Of a stretch of DNA of 64,000 nt, positions 3,456 through 41,280 are shown one piece after another; the first letter of the stretch is position 1; every line of letters begins with the position of its first letter. The notes beneath the pieces were generated by a model, which saw only the letters and a list, made by a program, of their open reading frames with translations, was not told the origin of the DNA and did not search any database. Source of the stretch: Pyrinomonadaceae bacterium (GTDB lineage: Bacteria > Acidobacteriota > Blastocatellia > Pyrinomonadales > Pyrinomonadaceae); contig JBIOUJ010000262.1 of the NCBI GenBank assembly GCA_044867025.1, positions 717 through 64,716 of the forward strand. The letters run 5' to 3'. Both the position numbers and the translations under genes were made by a program.

Positions 3456-3522
3456 ACATACCGGAGCACGGGACAACGCTTACTCCATTGGGTTGAATCC
3501 AACAGCCGCCTCGTATTGTTCC

Positions 3523-5520
3523 ATGTTCAAGACTCTTCTAATATGCCTGGCTTGCCTGACGGTCGTGGTGAACACTGCCGGCCAGGAGCGAGCAACCTAC
3601 TCCGCTGAGAAGCTTCAGCGTGAAGTAACTTTCCTGCTACTCGACAAAAACATCAACGACGTAACGAAGCAACTCGACAACGAAAGCCCTTCAACCGTTA
3701 ATTCCCTGCTTCGCCGCCTCGTCATCTACAGTCGCGCGGGCCAAACCGCCAACGTGCGCAAGACACTCGAACAATTGAGCGCCCATCCGGATTGGAAATG
3801 TCTCGTTGGTTCCGATCTGACATGGCTGATCCGGAATGCTGACGGGGGTGACTTCGGCGCACGCCGTCTCTACTACGAACGACTCTGCCCCGACGATATA
3901 AACGGCGGTGAAGAGTTCATCACACTTTGGGCCAAAAACGGCGATCTAAAAGAGCTCGACGCCTGGCTGGCTGAACGTTCGAATCGAAATGATGACTGGC
4001 TGATGTACCGCGTCGGTCTGCGCGCGAAGTCAGGCACAGTCGGCGAGGTGCTGGATGCGCTCGCCGCTGAGATAAGGGCAAACCCATCTGATTGGTGGCG
4101 CCTCGAGCGCTACCTGCGAGCAAACAATTACGCCGGCACAATACAAGACGTAAAGTGGCTCGCCGACACTTTCGTAGCCCGCACAGCCAGTGACTACTTC
4201 CAGTTCGCTGAACGCCTGCGACATTACTCGCCTCCAGCCGGCGCGAAACTTCTCGAGAAATCACTCGACCTTCCCTTCACCGACGCCGATGCGAAAGTGG
4301 TTAACGATTTAATAAACCGGTCCCTCTCGATCGGTCTATCAATCAAGATCAACGCCGAGAAGCAACTTCGCTATTGGACCAAACGAAGCCTCGCGGAAAC
4401 GTACCAGGCAATGAACCAGTCGCTCGCGGCTCAACCCCTGGTGGAAGAGCTCGTGTCAATGAAAGGCGACGACATATTACTGGCAGACGTCCATCAGTTA
4501 GCAGGCGCTGTGCAAGGCGGTTCGGGACAGCGAGTGGTAGAGACGAAGATTCTCGGTGATGAAGTCGCACGACGGTCCACATCCGAATACTGGCTCGAGC
4601 GCGCCGCGTATTACCACGGACGCAATGATTTCGGACTCGAACGGGATTCGTACCGGCAAGCCTTAGTCGCACTGCCACTCAGACCTGACGACAGCAACGC
4701 GCTAAACGAACGCTTCAACGTCGTCAGATCATTTGCTTTCTTTCTTGGAGAAAAGGACAACAACAAACTCGAGCTTGAAAAACTTTTGACACGCGAATTG
4801 AGCAGCGTTGCGCCGGAAACAGAGTACGCGTTTCAGATCGCCAGGCTGATTACCCAGAATGAGTTGAGAGTCGACGAGTTGCGAAACTCCCTCCTCGCCA
4901 AACGACCGTCGTTTTTCGCGCGGTTGCTGGATGGACGTCGCGAGTGGGGTGTCGAAGAAATGACGTTGATCGAAGACATCGTGCACCGTGAAGAAGTTCC
5001 ATCTGAGTTAAAAGAAAAAATCTGGTCCAGCCTCGAGGCCCTGGCTCGCAATCCGGGTTCAAGCCGCGCCTATCACCTCGCCGACGCGATGCAGCACAGT
5101 GACGAATGGCAACGAGCGATTCCGCTGTGGCGTGGTTACATCAAGCACGCTTCGCCCACGAGTTGGGAACGTTACAAGACCGACGGATTCGGTAAACTGT
5201 TCACCGCATACTGCCGCACAAAACAATGGCAGGACGCCGAGAAACTTTTGATCGCTGAACAGGATGCGTTCTGGCCTGTTTTGCCGAGTGCGCTGGCGGA
5301 GGTGGCGCTGGTTGCCGCACAGCAGAACGCCATCGCCGATGCGATGCGACTGTGGCGAAAGAGTACAAATCTGGACCGGCGAAACCTCGAAACCCTCGCT
5401 CAACTAGCTCAGACCAAGGCCCGACCGCAGTTGGTCGAAATGTACTCAAACATGAAAAAGGAAGATCCCCAATCCCGCATCCCAGACCTCGCCTTGCGAC
5501 TGTTGCAGCCGTCAAACTGA
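3523..5520 (+). CDS. Hypothetical secreted all-alpha (TPR-like) protein
   Basis: This is ORF 3493-5520. The ATG at 3523 gives a signal-like N-terminus, MFKTLLICLACLTVVVNTAGQ. The rest is helix-rich (W/R/E/L-rich) with no catalytic motif that I recognise. Confidence 0.6.
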   Translation: MFKTLLICLACLTVVVNTAGQERATYSAEKLQREVTFLLLDKNINDVTKQLDNESPSTVNSLLRRLVIYSRAGQTANVRKTLEQLSAHPDWKCLVGSDLTWLIRNADGGDFGARRLYYERLCPDDINGGEEFITLWAKNGDLKELDAWLAERSNRNDDWLMYRVGLRAKSGTVGEVLDALAAEIRANPSDWWRLERYLRANNYAGTIQDVKWLADTFVARTASDYFQFAERLRHYSPPAGAKLLEKSLDLPFTDADAKVVNDLINRSLSIGLSIKINAEKQLRYWTKRSLAETYQAMNQSLAAQPLVEELVSMKGDDILLADVHQLAGAVQGGSGQRVVETKILGDEVARRSTSEYWLERAAYYHGRNDFGLERDSYRQALVALPLRPDDSNALNERFNVVRSFAFFLGEKDNNKLELEKLLTRELSSVAPETEYAFQIARLITQNELRVDELRNSLLAKRPSFFARLLDGRREWGVEEMTLIEDIVHREEVPSELKEKIWSSLEALARNPGSSRAYHLADAMQHSDEWQRAIPLWRGYIKHASPTSWERYKTDGFGKLFTAYCRTKQWQDAEKLLIAEQDAFWPVLPSALAEVALVAAQQNAIADAMRLWRKSTNLDRRNLETLAQLAQTKARPQLVEMYSNMKKEDPQSRIPDLALRLLQPSN

Positions 5521-5584: not shown

Positions 5585-5614
5585 TTGACAAACAATTCGG
5601 CAGGCTCCTAATAT
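5585..5614 (+). promoter_or_regulatory. Candidate sigma70-type promoter of the fibre locus
   Basis: TTGACA (5585-5590), an 18-nt spacer, then TAATAT (5609-5614), about 155 nt upstream of the ATG at 5771. The predicted leader contains the hairpin gcggcc..ggccgc. Confidence 0.4.
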
Positions 5615-5770
5615 CCTTGTGCGGCCGCTGATATAGGGTAAGGGGCCGCAACACGCTGCTTGAATCCTCCGATACGAGCTAACCCCTATAAACCCTCTTC
5701 CTCAGTCTCATTTCAAAAGCTGACCTGAGCCTACGCGCGCGAGCGCGAATCTCAACCTAGGAGCAACGAC

Positions 5771-6463
5771 ATGTTTAAAATTACCAAGGGTGTTCTAACG
5801 GCCCTGGCTATAGCAACCCTGCTTATGATGACCGCTGCGGTATCATTTGCTCAGACCACCGGTTCGGTGACCATGAACGCAACCGTCTCGAACTTTGTCG
5901 AGTTGACTTCCGGCGGAGCCGTGACGCTCACCGGTAATTCGGGCGGCAGCGTTATCACGGACGGCACCGCAAACAGTCCCCTGGCAGTGGTCGTAAATCT
6001 GGGCGAATTAGGACCGAGCAACACCAATAGTTTCGTGAAATTGAGCGTGCCGCTCAGACTTCGCAGCAACGTAGCCTATCAGCTCAACATGGTTACCAGC
6101 GTTGCGGGCGCTGGTGCGACCGCTTTCAGTCTCAAAGATACCGACGTGGGTTTTGGTTTGACTCCAGCCGCGCGACCGGCAAATCTGGCCGCGGGTGTAG
6201 ACACGAACGCGACCCCTGGCGATCCGACGGTCGGTGGCAGCACGGATGCCAACGGACGCTGGGTCTTCTCTGGAGCGAATTCCACTCTCGGCGCTTATTC
6301 TTCGACTGGTGCAGTTTTGAGTGGACCACGCGTTAACCAGGCAGTCGCCGCAAACAGCAATACCAGTTTAACTTTCCCCGCGATCTTCGCAATCAAGCCT
6401 CAGTTCTTTGATCCTGCTCCGGCGATCACGATCACCGCGCAGTTCACTGTCGTAGCACTTTAG
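5771..6463 (+). CDS. Small secreted beta-rich protein, putative fibre/pilus subunit, paralog 1
   Basis: An AGGAG Shine-Dalgarno sits 7 nt upstream. The signal peptide is MFKITKGVLTALAIATLLMMTAAVSFA. The mature N-terminus has an alternating pattern, TGSVTMNATVS. It shares blocks with the next two ORFs (GGAVTLTGNSGG, NLGELGPSNTNSF, VPLRLRSN, FAIKPQFF) and has a C-terminal beta-strand, ITITAQFTVVAL. Confidence 0.75.
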   Translation: MFKITKGVLTALAIATLLMMTAAVSFAQTTGSVTMNATVSNFVELTSGGAVTLTGNSGGSVITDGTANSPLAVVVNLGELGPSNTNSFVKLSVPLRLRSNVAYQLNMVTSVAGAGATAFSLKDTDVGFGLTPAARPANLAAGVDTNATPGDPTVGGSTDANGRWVFSGANSTLGAYSSTGAVLSGPRVNQAVAANSNTSLTFPAIFAIKPQFFDPAPAITITAQFTVVAL

Positions 6464-6468
6464 TCTTT

Positions 6469-6556
6469 CTCTGCGTACCTCTGCGTACCTCTGCGCCTCT
6501 GCGGTGCACTATGATTTTCACCGCAGAGGCGCAGAGGTACGCAGAGGTACGCAGAG
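6469..6556. terminator. Repeat family D (CTCTGCG-unit) perfect hairpin, a candidate intra-operon attenuator or terminator
   Basis: Perfect 38-bp arms, ctctgcgtacctctgcgtacctctgcgcctctgcggtg (6469-6506) and its exact reverse complement (6519-6556), separated by a 12-nt loop. It starts 6 nt after the stop of subunit 1. The track ORF beginning at 6511 (MIFTAEAQRYAEVRRG) translates the right arm. Confidence 0.6.
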
Positions 6557-6597
6557 GTTGGTCTTCGGACCAACATATTCACGCCCGCCTCAAGGAT

Positions 6598-7296
6598 ATG
6601 AACATGCCCCGCCTAACCAAACCTCTACTACTTACGATATTGCTTGTCTCTGCTGTTACCTGTGTTGGACAGTCCACTACAGGAACAGTCAGCATGAGCG
6701 CGACCGTTTCAAAATTCGTCGAGATTAATTCAGGTGGCGCCGTCACCCTTACCGGCAACTCGGGTGGAGGTGTCACGACGGACGGCGTAGCCAACAGTCC
6801 GCTCGCGGTGTCGATCAACCTCGGTGAGCTTGGTCCAAGCAACACCAACAGCTTCGTCACTGCACAAGTACCACTCAGACTGAGAAGCAATGCGTCTTAT
6901 GTTTTATCGATGACCGCAACTGTGACCAGCTCCGGCACCACGAGCAACAGAATTGGCGCCGCCGATGTAGGTTTCGGACTGGGAACAGTTACGCGATCCG
7001 GAATGGGTGTTAACCCGACCGGCACGGATACGAATGCGACGTCGGGTGATCCGACTCTGGCGGCTAATGGATCGGTTAACGGGACGACGGGCCGCTATGA
7101 ATTCACGGCGGTGAGATCAAATCTCAGCGCGTTCTCTTCAGCCACGACTGCGCTCAGCGGCCCTTTCATCATGAACGCGGTGCCGCGCAGCAATGTCAAC
7201 GGGCTGAGCGTACCCGCATTCTTCGCAATCAAGCCTCAGTTTTTCGAAAACGGGACCACCACCGTCTCCGTCACTTTCACCGTGACCGCACCGTAA
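6598..7296 (+). CDS. Putative fibre/pilus subunit, paralog 2
   Basis: In-frame ATGs at 6598 and 6604 give MNMPRLTKPLLLTILLVSAVTCVGQ (signal peptide). The protein then runs collinear with paralog 1: TGTVSMSATVSKFVEINSGGAVTLTGNSGGGVTTDG, NLGELGPSNTNSF, VPLRLRSN, FAIKPQFF, VSVTFTVTAP. The longer 6511 start lies inside the hairpin repeat and is rejected. Confidence 0.75.
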   Translation: MNMPRLTKPLLLTILLVSAVTCVGQSTTGTVSMSATVSKFVEINSGGAVTLTGNSGGGVTTDGVANSPLAVSINLGELGPSNTNSFVTAQVPLRLRSNASYVLSMTATVTSSGTTSNRIGAADVGFGLGTVTRSGMGVNPTGTDTNATSGDPTLAANGSVNGTTGRYEFTAVRSNLSAFSSATTALSGPFIMNAVPRSNVNGLSVPAFFAIKPQFFENGTTTVSVTFTVTAP

Positions 7297-7955
7297 TGCG
7301 TTTCTTCATATTTCTGACACTTCTGGTTTTCGTTGTCGGAGTCCAGACTGCGTCCGCGCAGGCGCTGGACATCAGCAGCGGAGGTCTACCGACGATCACG
7401 GGCTCCGTGAATGGCTCCGTCACCGGCACCGCGAATGTCACGGGTGATCTGGTGGTGACGATCAATTTCGGAGAAGTCTCGCCACTCAACACGAATTCAG
7501 TCGTAAAGGTGCTTGTGCCGATCGCGCTCCGGAGCAATCAGCCATATCAGGTGTCGGTTTCAATGTCGGGGCTAACGAATGCAAATTCAGAGGCCTTGCA
7601 AGCATCTGACGTGGGCTTCGGTGTTCAGAATCCTCGCTTACTGGGCGGCGCCGGCCAAATTTGCACTCAGAGCACTCATATCGTTCGCTCACCCTTCAAC
7701 AACGATCCTGCTCTTAGTGCAACGATAAGCGGCAGCGGACGCGTCTCGTATCCATCGACGCTCGCAAGCCTGTCTGGTCCAACTGTAATTCTCAGTGGTC
7801 CGGAACTCTCAAAAAACAACAGCTCCAAACGCCAGCAATCCGACGGATGGATTTTTGACGCTGTGTTCGCTCTGACGCCACAGTTTTTCGTCTCTGGAGT
7901 TTCTTCAGCGACTCTCATCTTTACTATCTCGCCGGGACCGAACGTTCCCTGTTGA
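7296..7955 (+). CDS. Putative fibre/pilus subunit, paralog 3 (more divergent)
   Basis: The ATG overlaps the TAA of paralog 2 (taATG). The signal peptide is MRFFIFLTLLVFVVGVQTASA. Shared blocks are INFGEVSPLNTNS, VPIALRSNQPYQVS, FALTPQFF and ATLIFTIS. Confidence 0.7.
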   Translation: MRFFIFLTLLVFVVGVQTASAQALDISSGGLPTITGSVNGSVTGTANVTGDLVVTINFGEVSPLNTNSVVKVLVPIALRSNQPYQVSVSMSGLTNANSEALQASDVGFGVQNPRLLGGAGQICTQSTHIVRSPFNNDPALSATISGSGRVSYPSTLASLSGPTVILSGPELSKNNSSKRQQSDGWIFDAVFALTPQFFVSGVSSATLIFTISPGPNVPC

Positions 7956-8845
7956 AAGGCCTTCGATCGATGCGGACTGCAAATAATGTTTGCCGAGTTC
8001 TGTTTTGGTTGTTCGTTATCGTGGTTTGCGTAAACGCGCAAAGCCCGAATCCTGATGCGACGCCACCACCTAAAGGCAATGGTATCTCCCTGGCTCCCGC
8101 GCGCTTTGAACTCGAGATGGGGCCCGGTTCTGAAACAACCGTGGTAGTGAATCTCGACTATCACAGCACTGCTGAAAACTCACAACCCGTTCGCATCGTC
8201 GCCAGCTTGAACGATTGGACCATCGATCGTGATGGTCAGGTGCAATTTGAAAAAGCTAACACGTTACCTAACTCCGCGAGTCCGTGGTTGATCTACAGTC
8301 CTGCGGAAACAACGGTGGTGCCCGGAAATCTTCATGCGATTCGAGTCACCATCACAGTACCGAAAGATGCAACTCCAGGAGATCACCTGTCAGCACTGAT
8401 CATCGAACAGCGACCGGACAGCCTGAAGTTCACTGAGGATCGTCGTCAGATGGTGATTCGATACCGAATGGCGGCGGTCTTCTACATCAAGGTTCCACAA
8501 CTTCGCCGGCAGGGCTCTTTGGAAAGCCTGCGCGCCGAAGCAAAGGAAGGCCAGGTAATCGTAACGCCCTTTCTCAAGAATGCCGGCAACAGTGTGATTC
8601 GTCCGCTTACTTCGCTGCGGGTGACGGACAGTTCCGGTTTGTCGGTTGTAGAGGTACCGCAAAGAGAATCGTTGCCGTTGCTTGGTGGTTCTGAACTGGT
8701 CCAGCCACTCGTCGTCGAGACGCGTCTCACGCCTGGAACTTACAACGTGAAATATCGTGTGGATTTTCAGGACGGGAGTAGACCGACGGAAGGTATTACT
8801 GAGTTGGTGATCCCGCAAGCGTCAAATGGCCCGTCCAACCGCTGA
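7952..8845 (+). CDS. Secreted two-domain beta protein, candidate PapD-like periplasmic chaperone
   Basis: A TTG at 7952 overlaps the TGA of paralog 3 (TTGA). An alternative ATG lies at 7970 (MRTANNVCRVLFWLFVIVVCVNAQS). The sequence reads ISLAPARFELEMGPGSETTVVVNL...WLIYSPAETTVVPGNLHAIRVTITVP, followed by a second beta domain. Its size (about 290 aa) and position directly after the subunit genes fit a pilus chaperone. Homology has not been verified. Confidence 0.5.
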   Translation: MKGLRSMRTANNVCRVLFWLFVIVVCVNAQSPNPDATPPPKGNGISLAPARFELEMGPGSETTVVVNLDYHSTAENSQPVRIVASLNDWTIDRDGQVQFEKANTLPNSASPWLIYSPAETTVVPGNLHAIRVTITVPKDATPGDHLSALIIEQRPDSLKFTEDRRQMVIRYRMAAVFYIKVPQLRRQGSLESLRAEAKEGQVIVTPFLKNAGNSVIRPLTSLRVTDSSGLSVVEVPQRESLPLLGGSELVQPLVVETRLTPGTYNVKYRVDFQDGSRPTEGITELVIPQASNGPSNR

Positions 8846-9266
8846 GAGTCTCGGGCTTCACGCGAATGAGTAATGTGACTTGCAATGCGTTGTTTGGAGA
8901 ATTGAGAGTGCCGCCTAGTGAGATGCGCGGTCCGCGTAATACCACGTCACCTTCCCGCCTTTTATCCACGACATTGACAGCCTGAGGCGAAACCAAACTT
9001 CCGGTCGCATGTACGTCGACCACCGATAGTCCACTCAATTCGGCCGTTTGTGACTCGAAGACAGCCGAGATCTTGAAACTGCTATTTGAACGCACAAGCA
9101 AGGGCACGCGGATGACGGAAGGCTGAGCCTCGTCGCCCGACAACGTTATTCGCGTAACGGAAAGAGCGACGGTCTCGCTAACCGTGCCGGTCAGCGTGGC
9201 AGTTTGCGCGGCGCTACTCGCAGGCGCCAAAAACACCACTGCTATCAATATGAAGATCTGACGCAT
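8796..9266 (-). CDS. Putative fibre subunit, paralog 4 (short, opposite strand)
   Basis: The signal peptide is MRQIFILIAVVFLAPASSAAQ. The sequence continues TATLTGTVSETVALSV, and VPLLVRSNSSFKIS matches the VP(L/I)xLRSN block of paralogs 1-3. Its 3' end overlaps the chaperone-like ORF by 50 nt in convergent orientation. Confidence 0.6.
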   Translation of the reverse strand: MRQIFILIAVVFLAPASSAAQTATLTGTVSETVALSVTRITLSGDEAQPSVIRVPLLVRSNSSFKISAVFESQTAELSGLSVVDVHATGSLVSPQAVNVVDKRREGDVVLRGPRISLGGTLNSPNNALQVTLLIRVKPETLSGWTGHLTLAGSPTQ

Positions 9267-9292
9267 CGGGATTTCGCGAACTTATACCACTT

Positions 9293-11800
9293 ATGATGTT
9301 CACAAAAAAGCACAAAAGGCACATTTGGGTTGGTTTTACCTTGTTGTTCCTTTTGTGCCTTTTTGTGGCTCCGAGTGTAGTCGCAGATCCCTCGCAAGGA
9401 TCCGTAATCATCGTCAACGAGCGTGCACTCGTTGGCCCCAACAGCGCTGCACAATTACGTGGCGGACGCCTGTATCTTCCCGTCGCCACCATTGCCGAGG
9501 CTCTCGGCGACACGCTCAGCTCTGACGCGACGCAGCGTATCGTGACGGTTCGTCGCCAGAACGGCACGATCGCGGTTTTCAACGCTCCGCTGAATGAAGT
9601 GCGCGAGAACGGCGCTGTTATTCTCACCGTTTCTGGTACGGCCGACCTGGTCTTCCCGCCAACGCCGTACGACTTGATGCTCCCTGCCGAGATCGTTGCC
9701 GCACTTCTCGACGTGACTGTCCGGCGGGACGAAAACCAGGCCATCGTTGTTGCGCGCAAAGGTCTAAAAGCCGAGACGGTTCGCACGGGCGATAAACACG
9801 TGCGTTTCGAACTCTTCCAACTCGAGTACGACTACAACTTCACTCGTTACAGTTCGGCCGGCGATCACAGTCTGGTGCTTCGCGGCACCGGTCGTGTCGG
9901 CGACGCAAGGTTGACGTTCATCGCTAACTCGGCGATCGGTGTGACGCAGAATTCGTCTCGCCCGAGTTTGCAGGGGGGGACCGTCAGACTTGACCGGCCG
10001 AATGGTCAGAGCTTCGTCGGCGGCGAGTTTGGTACTGGCACAGACGTAGAATTCCTGGGGGCGGCCGTACGCGGCGGGTTGGTCCAATTGCCTTTCGATC
10101 GCGTGCGACTGGATTTCTTCGGCGGGCAAACAACTTCCGGAATACCGGAGTTCGATCCAACTGCTGTCTTACGTCCGCTTTCAGCCCTTGCCGTCCGCTA
10201 CGACACAAAACTCTTTGGGGCGATCGCAACCACTGCGACACACGCTCCACGACACCGTGACTTCACGTTCTCGGCTGGCGGTATGCACTTCGGCGGCTCG
10301 AGTCGCAGAGGAGACTTGTTCGCCGGTGGCGTCAAGTACGTTTCGGCTTTTAATCGTTTTCAAGCTGATGTCGCGACGGGCCAGTTCTCAGGTATTAATC
10401 GCCACGGTACTCAAACAGATGGCACCGGCATGGCGATCAATCTCGCCGGGTCTTATCGCTTGTTCGAGCAGGTGGTCCTGCAAGGTCGTTATACTCACGT
10501 CAGCGAAAACTTTTTGAGTCCTCAATCCGGATTACACGATCCAACAAACTCTGCCGCAGCAAGCGTGAGCTGGCAGCCGAGACGATGGCTGACGGCAGCA
10601 CTCAGTGGAAGCACCGCGACCACACCGGGAAGGGCTGAACAATTCAATCGCTACGTAACCGCAACCGTAAATCTCACGCCGGACAATTCGTGGCCGTCTC
10701 TCTTTATCTCTCACACGCAGAGCGGCACGACACACTTGAGAAGCTCTGCGTTCACGTTGATCACGGCCACGAAAAAATTTGATCGCTGGCAATTATTTGT
10801 GAACGGCGCGCGTGTTAAGACATTCGGGAATGCGGATCTCAACCTGCAAGCCGGTGGGAACATCCGCATCAATGACTCAAATGCACTCGAGGTGAGCCAG
10901 TCGGTAGGCAGTCGCGGGCTTCTCAGTGGCATAGCGACGTGGCAGGTATCAAACTTACTGCGTCACCATGTCAGCTTCAGCGCAGGGCTGGGCTACACAC
11001 GAAGCAATTCCGCGCCGCTTTACACTTCGCAACACTTGTCAGCATTCGTTAAGTTGCCGCGGAACAACACACTGCAATTCAGTTACTTGCGAACGCAAAC
11101 CGGAACGACTGCACTGCTGACTTTGCACGGTTTGCTTTTCTCTCCCAAGCGCGGCGAGCGTGCGATCAATGGTCCACTCGCGGACTTGAATTCCTACGGC
11201 TCGGTATACGGCCGTGTTTACCAGGACGTGAACCTGAACGGGCGCTTTGATCCGGGTACAGATCAGCCACAGGCGAATGTGAACATCCGTGTCGACGGAA
11301 GCCGTTACGTGATATCAGATGTGAATGGCAATTTTCGGATTGAGAGCGTTGCGCGAGGTGAGCACACGGTCTATCTCGATCTGTTGTCCGTACGCGCTGA
11401 CCTGACGCTGCTGGACACAGTGCAGCAACTCATTACGATGGATTCGAGTCACGATCAGATCGTGAATTTTCGCGTCGTGCGCACAGGGCGAATCAGTGGG
11501 TTGGTGTGGCTTGATACAAATGAGAATGGACGTCTCGACGATGCGGAACGACCGTTAGCTGACGTGCGCGTCGTGACGGGCAGCGGCCGCGACACCTTAA
11601 CCGACGGAAATGGTTATTTCATCATCGGCGACCTGCCACCCGGCGAACACATCCTCTTGCTGGACGAGAAGACAATGCCCGAACGAACCACATCCGTCGC
11701 GGGCTCCCAAACCATCAAAGTCACGGGAGGCAACGAAACCACGACCACCTTCCCCGTCGCCCCCCTCCCCGACCAGATAAAAAAATTCCCGCGAGAGTAG
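9293..11800 (+). CDS. Large secreted or outer-membrane protein, candidate usher analogue
   Basis: The signal peptide is MMFTKKHKRHIWVGFTLLFLLCLFVAPSVVA. The N-terminal domain resembles a copper-amine-oxidase N-terminal-like fold (RGGRLYLPVATIAEALGDTL...IVTVRRQNGT). About 500 aa of alternating-polarity, beta-barrel-like sequence follow. Two C-terminal SdrD-B / carboxypeptidase-regulatory-like domains are present (VYQDVNLNGRFDPGTDQP...DVNGNFRIESVARGEHTVYLD and VWLDTNENGRLDDAERP...DGNGYFIIGDLPPGEHILLLD). Confidence 0.55.
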   Translation: MMFTKKHKRHIWVGFTLLFLLCLFVAPSVVADPSQGSVIIVNERALVGPNSAAQLRGGRLYLPVATIAEALGDTLSSDATQRIVTVRRQNGTIAVFNAPLNEVRENGAVILTVSGTADLVFPPTPYDLMLPAEIVAALLDVTVRRDENQAIVVARKGLKAETVRTGDKHVRFELFQLEYDYNFTRYSSAGDHSLVLRGTGRVGDARLTFIANSAIGVTQNSSRPSLQGGTVRLDRPNGQSFVGGEFGTGTDVEFLGAAVRGGLVQLPFDRVRLDFFGGQTTSGIPEFDPTAVLRPLSALAVRYDTKLFGAIATTATHAPRHRDFTFSAGGMHFGGSSRRGDLFAGGVKYVSAFNRFQADVATGQFSGINRHGTQTDGTGMAINLAGSYRLFEQVVLQGRYTHVSENFLSPQSGLHDPTNSAAASVSWQPRRWLTAALSGSTATTPGRAEQFNRYVTATVNLTPDNSWPSLFISHTQSGTTHLRSSAFTLITATKKFDRWQLFVNGARVKTFGNADLNLQAGGNIRINDSNALEVSQSVGSRGLLSGIATWQVSNLLRHHVSFSAGLGYTRSNSAPLYTSQHLSAFVKLPRNNTLQFSYLRTQTGTTALLTLHGLLFSPKRGERAINGPLADLNSYGSVYGRVYQDVNLNGRFDPGTDQPQANVNIRVDGSRYVISDVNGNFRIESVARGEHTVYLDLLSVRADLTLLDTVQQLITMDSSHDQIVNFRVVRTGRISGLVWLDTNENGRLDDAERPLADVRVVTGSGRDTLTDGNGYFIIGDLPPGEHILLLDEKTMPERTTSVAGSQTIKVTGGNETTTTFPVAPLPDQIKKFPRE
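9301..9369. repeat. Repeat family E (GCCACAAAAAGGCACAAAA motif), an inverted pair inside the signal-peptide coding region
   Basis: cacaaaaaagcacaaaaggcaca (9301-9323) and ccttttgtgcctttttgtggc (9349-9369) are mutually inverted. They encode the KKHKRH n-region and LLCLFVA h-region of the 835-aa protein. Confidence 0.7.
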
Positions 11801-11915: not shown

Positions 11916-12173
11916 ATGCGAACCGAACTCGTTACCACTCTTAAGCGCCAAGCCACGGAACTCCTAAACCAACTGGAGAAAGATCGAGAGCCGATCCTGA
12001 TCACACAGCATGGCGTTCCATCAGCGTACTTAGTCGATGTTGAGACGTTTGAAACCCTGCAACGTCGCATGGCATTGCTTGAAGGTATTGCTCGTGGCGA
12101 AAAAGCTGTTGAAGAAGGCCGCTCCCTCACACACAAGCAGGCAAAGCGACGGATGGCTAGATGGCTGAAGTAA
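11916..12173 (+). CDS. Type II antitoxin, Phd/YefM family
   Basis: 85 aa: MRTELVTTLKRQATELLNQLEKDREPILITQHGVPSAYLVDVETFETLQ. This is the typical Phd/YefM N-terminal fold signature. It overlaps the downstream toxin gene by 13 nt. Confidence 0.85.
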   Translation: MRTELVTTLKRQATELLNQLEKDREPILITQHGVPSAYLVDVETFETLQRRMALLEGIARGEKAVEEGRSLTHKQAKRRMARWLK

Positions 12174-12478
12174 TCTGGGCCGAGCCTGCGCTCAGCGATC
12201 TTGATGCCATTGCCGACTACATCGCGTTGGATAATCCCGTGGCCGCACGCGGGCTGGTCCAACGGATCTTCGAGCACGTTGGCCATCTTGAAAGCCACCC
12301 GAAGCTAGGCTCAAAGCCCCCGGAACTCAAAGGCTGGCGTTATCGCCAGATTGTCGAGCCGCCATGTCGCATCTTCTACCGCGAGGATTCTGGCCGAGTC
12401 TTAATACTTCACGTCATGCGATCTGAACGATTGCTGAGGCCGGAGTTACTCAGCCAGCTAGACGAAAGTGGCTCATAA
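12161..12478 (+). CDS. Type II toxin, RelE/ParE superfamily (ParE-like)
   Basis: 105 aa: VIWAEPALSDLDAIADYIALDNPVAARGLVQRIFEHVGHLESHPKLG...YRQIVEPPCRIFYREDSGRVLILHVMRSER. This matches the ParE/RelE consensus layout. Confidence 0.85.
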   Translation: MAEVIWAEPALSDLDAIADYIALDNPVAARGLVQRIFEHVGHLESHPKLGSKPPELKGWRYRQIVEPPCRIFYREDSGRVLILHVMRSERLLRPELLSQLDESGS

Positions 12479-24217: not shown

Positions 24218-24299
24218 CCTGCGGTTCTCTGCGTATCTCTGCGTTTGAAGGGCCTTTTTTACGCAGAGGTCGCAGAGATACGCAGAGGACCGCAGAGAA
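24218..24299. repeat. Repeat family D (CTCTGCG units), an imperfect hairpin copy
   Basis: cctgcggttctctgcgtatctctgcgt ... acgcagaggtcgcagagatacgcagaggaccgcagagaa. It lies between the receiver gene start and the DEAD-box helicase stop. Confidence 0.7.
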
Positions 24300-41191: not shown

Positions 41192-41280
41192 CTCTGCGTA
41201 TCTCTGCGTACCTCTGCGCCTCTGCGGTGAAGAAGCTGTTTTTACCGCAGAGGCGCAGAGGTACGCAGAGATACGCAGAG
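41192..41280. repeat. Repeat family D hairpin with a perfect 37-bp stem
   Basis: ctctgcgtatctctgcgtacctctgcgcctctgcggt (41192-41228) and its exact reverse complement (41244-41280). It sits between the FixH-like stop and the CcoG-like start. Confidence 0.85.

Follow-up and report, generated by a model that had tools for sequence, protein, structure and literature searches.

Membership of the PapD and usher protein families defines chaperone-usher pili, which are known mainly from Proteobacteria, and archaic members of the class occur widely outside Enterobacteria. In these pili the subunit that lacks a donor strand (FimH, PapG) is found at the distal tip, and an Arg in the N-terminal motif of the chaperone FimC binds the subunit C-terminus. 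It has been reported that the DUF916 protein ElrE acts as the donor-strand chaperone of Gram-positive WxL pili (bioRxiv 10.64898/2026.10.17.759780, October 2026). The same work places the donor strand of ElrE at the end of its DUF916 domain, finds that its predicted structure matches CsuC, CfaA, Caf1M and EcpB, and describes the Elr system as confined to Bacillota, with chaperones that have no sequence connection to those of PapD type (bioRxiv 10.64898/2026.10.17.759780). In addition, cryo-electron microscopy of pond water (Tsinghua Lotus Pond) has revealed the fibrils TLP-1a and TLP-1b (PDB 9IKJ and 9IKK), of which TLP-1a is linked by a donor strand from the N-terminus, a strand that is disordered in AlphaFold2 (AF2) monomers; the producer and the assembly genes were not known to the authors, and the nearest predicted homologues belong to Flavobacteriales (PMC11494351). 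The present work concerns a cassette of six genes in a 64,000-nucleotide stretch (contig JBIOUJ010000262.1; the whole stretch is called the window below) of the genome of an uncultured Pyrinomonadaceae bacterium (Acidobacteriota, Blastocatellia). This cassette encodes four paralogous secreted subunits (S1 to S4), a secreted, putatively two-domain protein (C) and a secreted protein of 835 amino acids (U), and it probably represents a non-canonical chaperone-usher-type pilus assembled by donor-strand exchange.

The original prediction, which was made from the DNA letters, had described this locus as a fibre system, so far uncharacterised, that follows chaperone-usher logic and has a non-classical protein at the usher position, and this description is supported by the co-conservation of the genes, the structural model of U, a DUF916 signal in C and the pattern in which an N-terminal extension occurs among the subunits. 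All six open reading frames (ORFs) were found, and the proposed paralogy of the four subunits is evident, with identities of S1 to S2, S3 and S4 of 56%, 34% and 27%, respectively. Likewise, the blocks quoted as common to the subunits (NLGELGPSNTNSF, VPLxLRSN, IKPQFF and a final strand) are indeed present. A literature search did not find a published description of such a cassette.

To survey its distribution one genome per species was scanned, which gave 80 related loci, all of them in Pyrinomonadaceae or other Acidobacteriota, with C proteins that are 54-90% identical to that of the window. The proposed check of gene co-occurrence had a clear outcome, as S-type genes upstream of C and a U gene beside C occur together in the 80 loci wherever the contig allows, while the flanking genes do not accompany them. 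Clustering of all flanking ORFs yielded no other family in more than 8 loci, so the cassette appears self-contained and is found in varying contexts. Its genes are arranged as S1 S2 S3 C S4(-) U(+), as in the window, as S2 S3 C U(-) S4(+), where the head-to-head pair of S4 and U is inverted as a block, or as S2 (S2) S3 C U without S4. An S2-type subunit was found in every related locus and S4 in 55 of them, always head-to-head with U, even where the pair is inverted. Its occurrence within the genus is patchy, with 8 of 25 genomes carrying it, and no relatives outside Acidobacteriota turned up in a scan that did not sample other phyla directly. The subunit family is small, as 1.84 billion representatives contain 224 clusters of it at 50% identity, and its most divergent subgroup comes from Pyrinomonadaceae where the source is named. 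A divergent subgroup (L107) keeps the set, arranged as S, S, S (frameshifted), C and U, followed by an S3-like gene. Decayed cassettes, with stops in C or with a split C or U, were also observed (L088, L073, L006/L009 in G010, L007/L010/L011 in G007, and L107:4132-4915), and one subunit gene is frameshifted.

With regard to the subunits, an alignment of 99 sequences (44 of S1/S2 type and 55 of S3 type) showed that a 14-residue extension follows the signal peptide in 44 of 44 S1/S2-type proteins and in 0 of 55 S3-type proteins, a distribution that fits donor-strand exchange. The extension has the consensus Q-T-T-G-T-V-x-M-S-(A/G)-T-V-S-K-F, in which the conserved V6, M8, A/G10 and V12 lie on one face, and its pattern SVTMNATVS parallels the FimG donor strand TITVNGKVV; FimF was also compared. 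In S1 the signal peptide is cleaved after SFA and is followed by 14-15 extension residues (QTTGSVTMNATVSNF) and then by a beta-sandwich that ends in its last strand, S2 combines a signal peptide with the extension TTGTVSMSATVSKF, and the N-terminus of S4 is extension-like (TATLTGTVSETVALS). The alternating N-terminal hydrophobic residues that had been predicted for the subunits are therefore present in S1, S2 and S4, but not in S3, which has no extension. Because S3 lacks this element, as tip subunits lack a donor strand, it is a candidate tip subunit; S3-type proteins carry a C-terminal Cys in 50 of 55 cases, and S3 also has a conserved internal Cys. S4 forms a separate subfamily among representative subunits, and in the window it is shorter than usual, most orthologues having 175-210 residues. 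The cleavage sites of S1 to S4 are of the signal-peptidase-I type, and no lipoprotein signals were seen in them.

The AF2 model of mature S1 reached a predicted local distance difference test score (pLDDT) of 91 and a predicted template modelling score (pTM) of 0.87, and its residues 1-15 have no secondary structure. When this model was compared with the PDB using Foldseek, the best match, and the only one with E<1e-3, was TLP-1a (9IKJ; E 5e-4, probability 1.00), and about 18 of the next 49 matches were chaperone-usher subunit chains (FimA, FimF, FimG, FimH, FimI, CfaB and PapH). The structural match between the S1 model and TLP-1a is regarded as moderate evidence. PDB sequence searches with S1 and with the profile of the S family gave nothing credible, TLP-1 included.

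The protein at the usher position, U, begins with a signal peptide (residues 1-32), and Pfam assigns it a Cu_amine_oxidN1 domain (PF07833; residues 50-149, E 1e-7, above the cut-off) and, at its C-terminus, CarboxypepD_reg and SdrD_B-like domains, also above their cut-offs, with nothing matched in residues 150-640. An AF2 model built from 62 sequences (pLDDT 82, pTM 0.55) consists of an alpha/beta N-domain, a core and two C-terminal beta-sandwiches; the original prediction had named a copper-amine-oxidase-N-like domain, a barrel-like core and two SdrD-B-like domains. The question had been raised whether residues ~170-640 form a 24-strand barrel with a plug; the model has about 26 consecutive long antiparallel strands in residues 163-616. 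In the comparison of U with the PDB the 12 best Foldseek matches were all FimD or PapC (E 8e-22 to 8e-14), aligned over the full length, and structures of the usher pore only gave E-values of 5.6e-11 to 4.8e-10, with template modelling scores (TM-scores) of 0.56 for 3ohn_B and 0.51 for 2vqi_B. Among other barrels, TonB-dependent receptors were matched at about 1e-7, and MtrB and porins likewise at 1e-7 or worse. The U model thus has the architecture of an usher, namely an N-domain, a large beta-barrel and two C-terminal Ig-like domains, and on this model the core is read as a transmembrane barrel and the C-terminal sandwiches would occupy the positions of usher C-terminal domains 1 and 2 (CTD1 and CTD2). 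A PDB sequence search with U gave nothing credible.

Protein C is a candidate soluble periplasmic chaperone. Its only family signal is PF06030 (DUF916/WxLIP_PGBD), which is matched over its whole length by residues 52-152 of C, and the signal is weak but consistent, as 58 of 62 relatives also show it at E<=0.01, the best of them at E 2.7e-6; C is also the only PF06030 match of the genome. The C-terminal half gives weak matches to Ig-like families (CopC, FixG_C and NPCBM_assoc). The family contains the invariant blocks APARxE and GDHLxxLxxEQR, and its most conserved block, GDHLSALIIEQRP, would be equivalent in position to the donor strand of ElrE, at the end of the DUF916 domain. In sequence, therefore, C resembles the DUF916 chaperone class. 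The protein begins GISLAPARFE, with an invariant Arg, which may be compared with GVALGATRVIY of FimC, and some relatives of C bear the name 'P pilus assembly chaperone PapD', assigned by the Joint Genome Institute (JGI) on the basis of COG. C has no C-terminal membrane helix, since it ends in ...ITELVIPQASNGPSNR with no hydrophobic stretch, and the same is true of its relatives. PDB sequence searches with C and with the C-family profile gave nothing credible.

Upstream of S1, the predicted promoter-like site is present, and both hexamers are kept in 15 of 19 orthologous upstream regions, in which the DNA upstream of the -35 element cannot be aligned; matches of this kind are as such no rarer here than chance predicts (2 found versus 3.4 expected). 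The leader that follows contains the invariant blocks TAGGG...CCCTAT and CCTCAGTC...GACyTGAG. Parts of these blocks are able to pair (TAGGG with CCCTA, and CUCAGUC with GACUUGAG); as no covariation is seen in the predicted pairs, which are invariant, a leader structure cannot be claimed. A scan of the leader and hairpin region against Rfam found no family, the only matches being spurious ones to microRNAs on the hairpin.

The perfect hairpin with a 38-bp stem that had been reported after S1 is found exactly as described, with arms at 6469-6506 and 6519-6556 that are 100% complementary, a 12-nt loop and CTCTGCG units. The hairpin belongs to a dispersed repeat, of which the window holds further copies at 24227-24297 and 41192-41280; the repeat family consists of long perfect hairpins of CTCTGCG(T/G)AC units, each copy lying between genes of an operon. 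A strong GC-rich hairpin occupies the spacer between S1 and S2 in 36 of the 38 loci that have both genes (predicted -25.8 to -69.6 kcal/mol). Many of these hairpins share CCGGCCGTCAG...CTGACGGCCGG and other lineages have unrelated sequences, and since the spacers fold alike with differing sequences, it is the position of the hairpin that is conserved and not its sequence, the slot being filled in the window by a copy of the repeat family. As most copies lack a T-run, the hairpin is not a classical terminator. The idea that it sets the stoichiometry of the subunits gains support from this conserved position, which is consistent with the hairpin raising the output of S1 over that of the genes downstream of it.

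Coordinates in the window of the cassette genes, protein domains and candidate regulatory features
Feature	Position	Strand	Basis
Promoter-like site TTGACA-N18-TAATAT, sigma-70 type	5585-5614	+	Hexamer match, kept in orthologous upstream regions
5' leader of ~155 nt with Shine-Dalgarno	5615-5770	+	Alignment and consensus fold
S1, subunit of 230 aa	5771-6463	+	ORF; AF2 model
Perfect hairpin, 38-nt arms, 12-nt loop	6469-6556		Inverted-repeat match
S2, subunit of 235 aa	6589-7296	+	ORF open from 6511; likely start ATG 6589 (MNMPRL)
S3, subunit of 219 aa	7296-7955	+	ORF; ATG shares one base with the S2 stop (TAATG)
C, 291 aa from ATG 7970 (297 aa from TTG 7952)	7970-8845	+	ORF; DUF916-like N-domain, Ig-like C-domain
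S4, short subunit paralogue of 156 aa	8796-9266	-	ORF; divergent from U
U, usher-like, 835 aa	9293-11800	+	ORF; AF2 and Foldseek
U N-terminal domain, residues 38-155, copper-amine-oxidase-N/'stalk' type	9404-9757	+	PF07833; alpha/beta in model
U core, residues 163-616, ~26 long antiparallel beta-strands	9779-11140	+	DSSP of model
U two C-terminal beta-sandwiches, residues 635-730 and 732-824	11195-11764	+	CarboxypepD_reg, SdrD_B; model
Inverted pair of a 19-23-nt motif (9301-9323, 9345-9367) in U signal-peptide codons	9301-9367		35-100 nt upstream of S4 (minus strand)

The overlap noted between the S2 stop and the S3 start was found. The overlap that had been described between S3 and C (TTGA) is a different case: an ORF of 297 codons does run from the TTG, but C probably starts at the ATG, where GAAAGG lies ~10 nt upstream and which agrees with public gene calls of 291 residues, so the overlap is a probable artefact of taking the longest ORF. 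C and S4 are convergent and share 50 nt at their 3' ends (8796-8845), and a comparable overlap is seen in the closest related locus (L024). The start codons of S4 and U are head-to-head and 26 nt apart (window 9264-9367); because they are so close, the promoters of the two genes would lie inside each other's gene, or U would be read through antisense to S4. In this region the inverted motif pair may be a candidate promoter or operator of S4. Upstream of the cassette, a 675-residue gene resembling tetratricopeptide-repeat proteins (3493-5520) was considered as a component and rejected, as it is absent beside the cassette in all 80 related loci. Right downstream of U two ORFs of 85 and 105 residues overlap (11916-12478); they had earlier been labelled a toxin-antitoxin pair of Phd/ParE type and are not part of the cassette in related loci.

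Available information allows, by analogy, a working scheme for how such a fibre might be made. Transcription would start at the conserved sigma-70-like promoter and pass through the conserved leader into S1, and the stable hairpin after this gene would probably lift S1 output over that of the downstream genes, either by attenuation or by stabilisation of an mRNA 3' end. All six products would be exported by Sec. In the periplasm, soluble C would lend a strand to each subunit and hold it in this way; a candidate for the strand is the invariant GDHLxALIxEQRP at the end of the DUF916-like domain, and the invariant Arg of APARxE is a candidate anchor for the subunit C-terminus. U would serve as the outer-membrane pore, and its N-domain and two C-terminal sandwiches would take the docking and hand-over roles of the usher N-terminal domain, CTD1 and CTD2. 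S3, having no donor strand, would be the first to enter the fibre and would cap its tip, S1 and S2 would polymerise after it, and S4, encoded head-to-head with U, may be a minor adaptor or terminator subunit.

Several observations weigh against this scheme. No member of the classical chaperone-usher families was detected: the Usher family PF00577 is matched neither by U nor by anything else in the genome at E<=1, with an E. coli control genome matched in the same test, C has no match to the PapD families PF00345 and PF02753, and PF00345 is not matched in the genome at E<=1. The S1 to S4 proteins (Pfam and NCBIfam, E<=1) and 102 diverse relatives (Pfam, E<=0.01) gave no match, SCPU included, and profile alignment with hhalign gave probabilities of only 0.7% for the U family with FimD, 0.4% for the C family with FimC and 0.3-0.5% for the S families with the WxL pilin ElrD, whose sequence was translated from the synthetic insert of the preprint. 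Even the DUF916 signal is weak in the window's own C (E 1e-4, 22.8 bits, below the cut-off of 27.3), and PF11797, the second WxLIP domain (DUF3324), is not matched by C, the only match of the genome being one with E 0.51 on another contig. As those tests of membership were made and gave no match, the cassette stands outside the PapD, Usher, SCPU and WxL sequence families. For the same reason the label 'archaic, Csu/SCPU-like' in the original prediction has to be dropped, there being no SCPU match, no PapD_N or Usher in the genome, and in C a signal that belongs to the WxL-interacting family. The structural comparisons have their own limits, with modest Foldseek TM-scores for U (0.36-0.56), a TM-score of only 0.34-0.39 and an identity of 12% between S1 and TLP-1a, and weak matches of S1 to the Fim, Pap and Cfa pilins (E 0.01-0.1). 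Furthermore, a plug in the barrel of U is not discernible from the secondary structure of the model, which has 26-27 strands in 454 residues, a disordered loop at 281-304 and no obvious insert of 80 residues; the S1 extension has a pLDDT of ~79 in the monomer model, on account of which that model is silent on whether the fold is complete; and all relatives come from uncultured genomes.

Some of these points would be expected if the cassette were a dedicated system for exporting and displaying surface proteins that stay unpolymerised, with C as a periplasmic holdase and U as an outer-membrane pore from which S1 to S4 would be released, or by which they would be anchored, as monomers or a coat layer, without any donor-strand exchange. 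The S1 monomer model, confident throughout and including the extension, agrees with such a system, as do the weakness of the pilin matches and the missing plug. The strict split of the extension, present in 44 of 44 sequences of one type and absent from 55 of 55 of the other, is, however, naturally meaningful only where one subunit gives its strand to another. In addition, S1 finds its best structural match in a donor-strand fibril, and U resembles ushers specifically, so that display without polymerisation is considered improbable. It is also conceivable that U is a transporter barrel like SusC or a TonB-dependent receptor, in an outer-membrane uptake complex whose surface substrate-binding partners would be S1 to S4, which would account for the CarboxypepD_reg domains and for the presence of TonB-dependent receptors among the Foldseek matches (~E 1e-7). 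Yet ushers outrank these receptors by 7 to 15 orders of magnitude in full-length alignments, the CarboxypepD_reg domains of U are at the C-terminal and not the N-terminal end, neither a plug domain nor a TonB box nor lipoprotein signals were seen, and no transport or catabolic genes are co-conserved, and an uptake complex is accordingly thought to be very improbable indeed. A further alternative bears on ancestry, namely that the cassette does belong to the classical usher and PapD families by common descent and has diverged from them to an extreme degree, the other options being a lineage of its own or a chimera of parts of DUF916 and usher type. The domain order and sizes of U are like those of FimD, the usher E-values are strong, the N-terminal motif of C is FimC-like and the JGI name of some relatives points to PapD; on the other hand, PF00577 and PF00345 are without a match at E<=1, the hhalign probabilities are below 1% and Pfam places the terminal domains of U in other families. 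Such descent is rather unlikely in our estimation, and it concerns ancestry only, being compatible with a mechanism of chaperone-usher type. The reading of the cassette as a non-canonical chaperone-usher-type pilus is thus retained as the probable one.

Whether similar machinery is spread more broadly in the phylum was approached with a C profile that included distant members, which matched 37 of 401 sampled Acidobacteriota genomes and 26 of 227 genera. In eight distant loci from other Acidobacteriota families (L121-L128), C-like genes lie beside genes for proteins of ~550-1000 residues, and in 7 of the 8 this large protein shares the C-terminal domain pair of U, the protein of L127 matching nothing; the hhalign probability for this pair is ~98% in L125 and in L023. 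Several distant loci have one to four small secreted proteins encoded upstream of the C-like gene. A wider class of cassettes with C-like and U-like proteins across Acidobacteriota is suggested by these sequence comparisons and not shown by them, because the distant U-like proteins have only the C-terminal pair in common with U, their barrel cores not being detectably similar. One distant cassette occurs in the same genus (L023:1120-6776, in G015), with two small secreted proteins, a C-like protein and a U-like protein of 910 residues, and in its middle lies a type IV pilin-like gene whose product has the N-terminus FSLIELLIVVAIIGIIAAIAVPSL.

If the proposed pilus is real, the assembly logic of chaperone-usher systems appears in abundant soil Acidobacteriota that have not been cultured, where its parts escape the standard family models, and genome surveys of adhesins and secretion systems would overlook it for that reason. 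With such fibres Acidobacteriota might attach to soil particles and form biofilms. In addition, a periplasmic relative of DUF916 proteins coupled to an usher would make a common origin of these chaperones testable.

Among described systems, archaic (sigma) pili such as Csu of Acinetobacter likewise have several small paralogous subunits encoded in an operon with a chaperone and an usher, but no SCPU, CsuC-type (PapD_N) or usher match was found in any protein of the cassette or in a relative. The Pam pili of Candidate Phyla Radiation (CPR) bacteria are also donor-strand pili with non-classical chaperones encoded in the pilin operon, and they differ in that these chaperones are membrane-anchored, the host has no outer membrane or usher, and the pilins have two domains (PMC13278184). 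The classical chaperone-usher systems of E. coli, that is, type 1 pili (FimA/F/G/H, FimC and FimD) and P pili (PapD, PapC), share with the cassette the logic of an operon for paralogous subunits, a periplasmic two-domain protein and an outer-membrane protein of ~800 residues, and FimD and PapC are the best matches to the architecture of U. They also share an extension in which, as in FimG, alternating hydrophobic residues surround a small one, one subunit type without it, as at the tip, and a hairpin after the first subunit gene. The cassette differs from them in having no match to the PapD_N, Usher or fimbrial Pfam families, in the Cu_amine_oxidN1 and CarboxypepD_reg types of the terminal domains of U, in having no discernible plug, in a candidate tip subunit of a single domain, and in its acidobacterial host.

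TLP-1 resembles S1 in that AF2 leaves the N-terminal strand of the monomer unstructured, and it differs in donating this strand to subunit n+4, in forming a tube and in having no profile-level sequence match to the S family; the S1-TLP-1a match nevertheless offers a candidate type of assembly machinery for cryo-EM fibrils that were never traced to genes. With the Elr/WxL pili of Enterococcus faecalis and other Bacillota the cassette shares the family signal of C (DUF916/PF06030), which is that of the N-domain of ElrE, an N-terminal extension of ~15 residues resembling a donor strand, and subunits that end right after the last strand, with ...T(F/W)T(V/L)xxxP. C differs from ElrE in lacking both a DUF3324/PF11797 match and a membrane helix at the C-terminus, no WxL domain is detectable in the subunits (hhalign below 1%), and an LPxTG base subunit and a sortase are absent from the cassette, which has no co-conserved neighbours; conversely, the cassette has an outer-membrane usher-like protein, which Elr lacks. 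It is tentatively proposed, as a possibility that we hold to fall short of even, that the cassette is the double-membrane counterpart of the Gram-positive DUF916-chaperone pili, combining a soluble chaperone of DUF916 type with an usher-like pore, either as an independent invention or as a very deep branch of the ushers, and that this arrangement is widespread in Acidobacteriota and is the type of machinery behind TLP-1-type fibrils. If so, a double-membrane DUF916 class would bridge WxL and chaperone-usher pili, which are disjoint in sequence (bioRxiv 10.64898/2026.10.17.759780).

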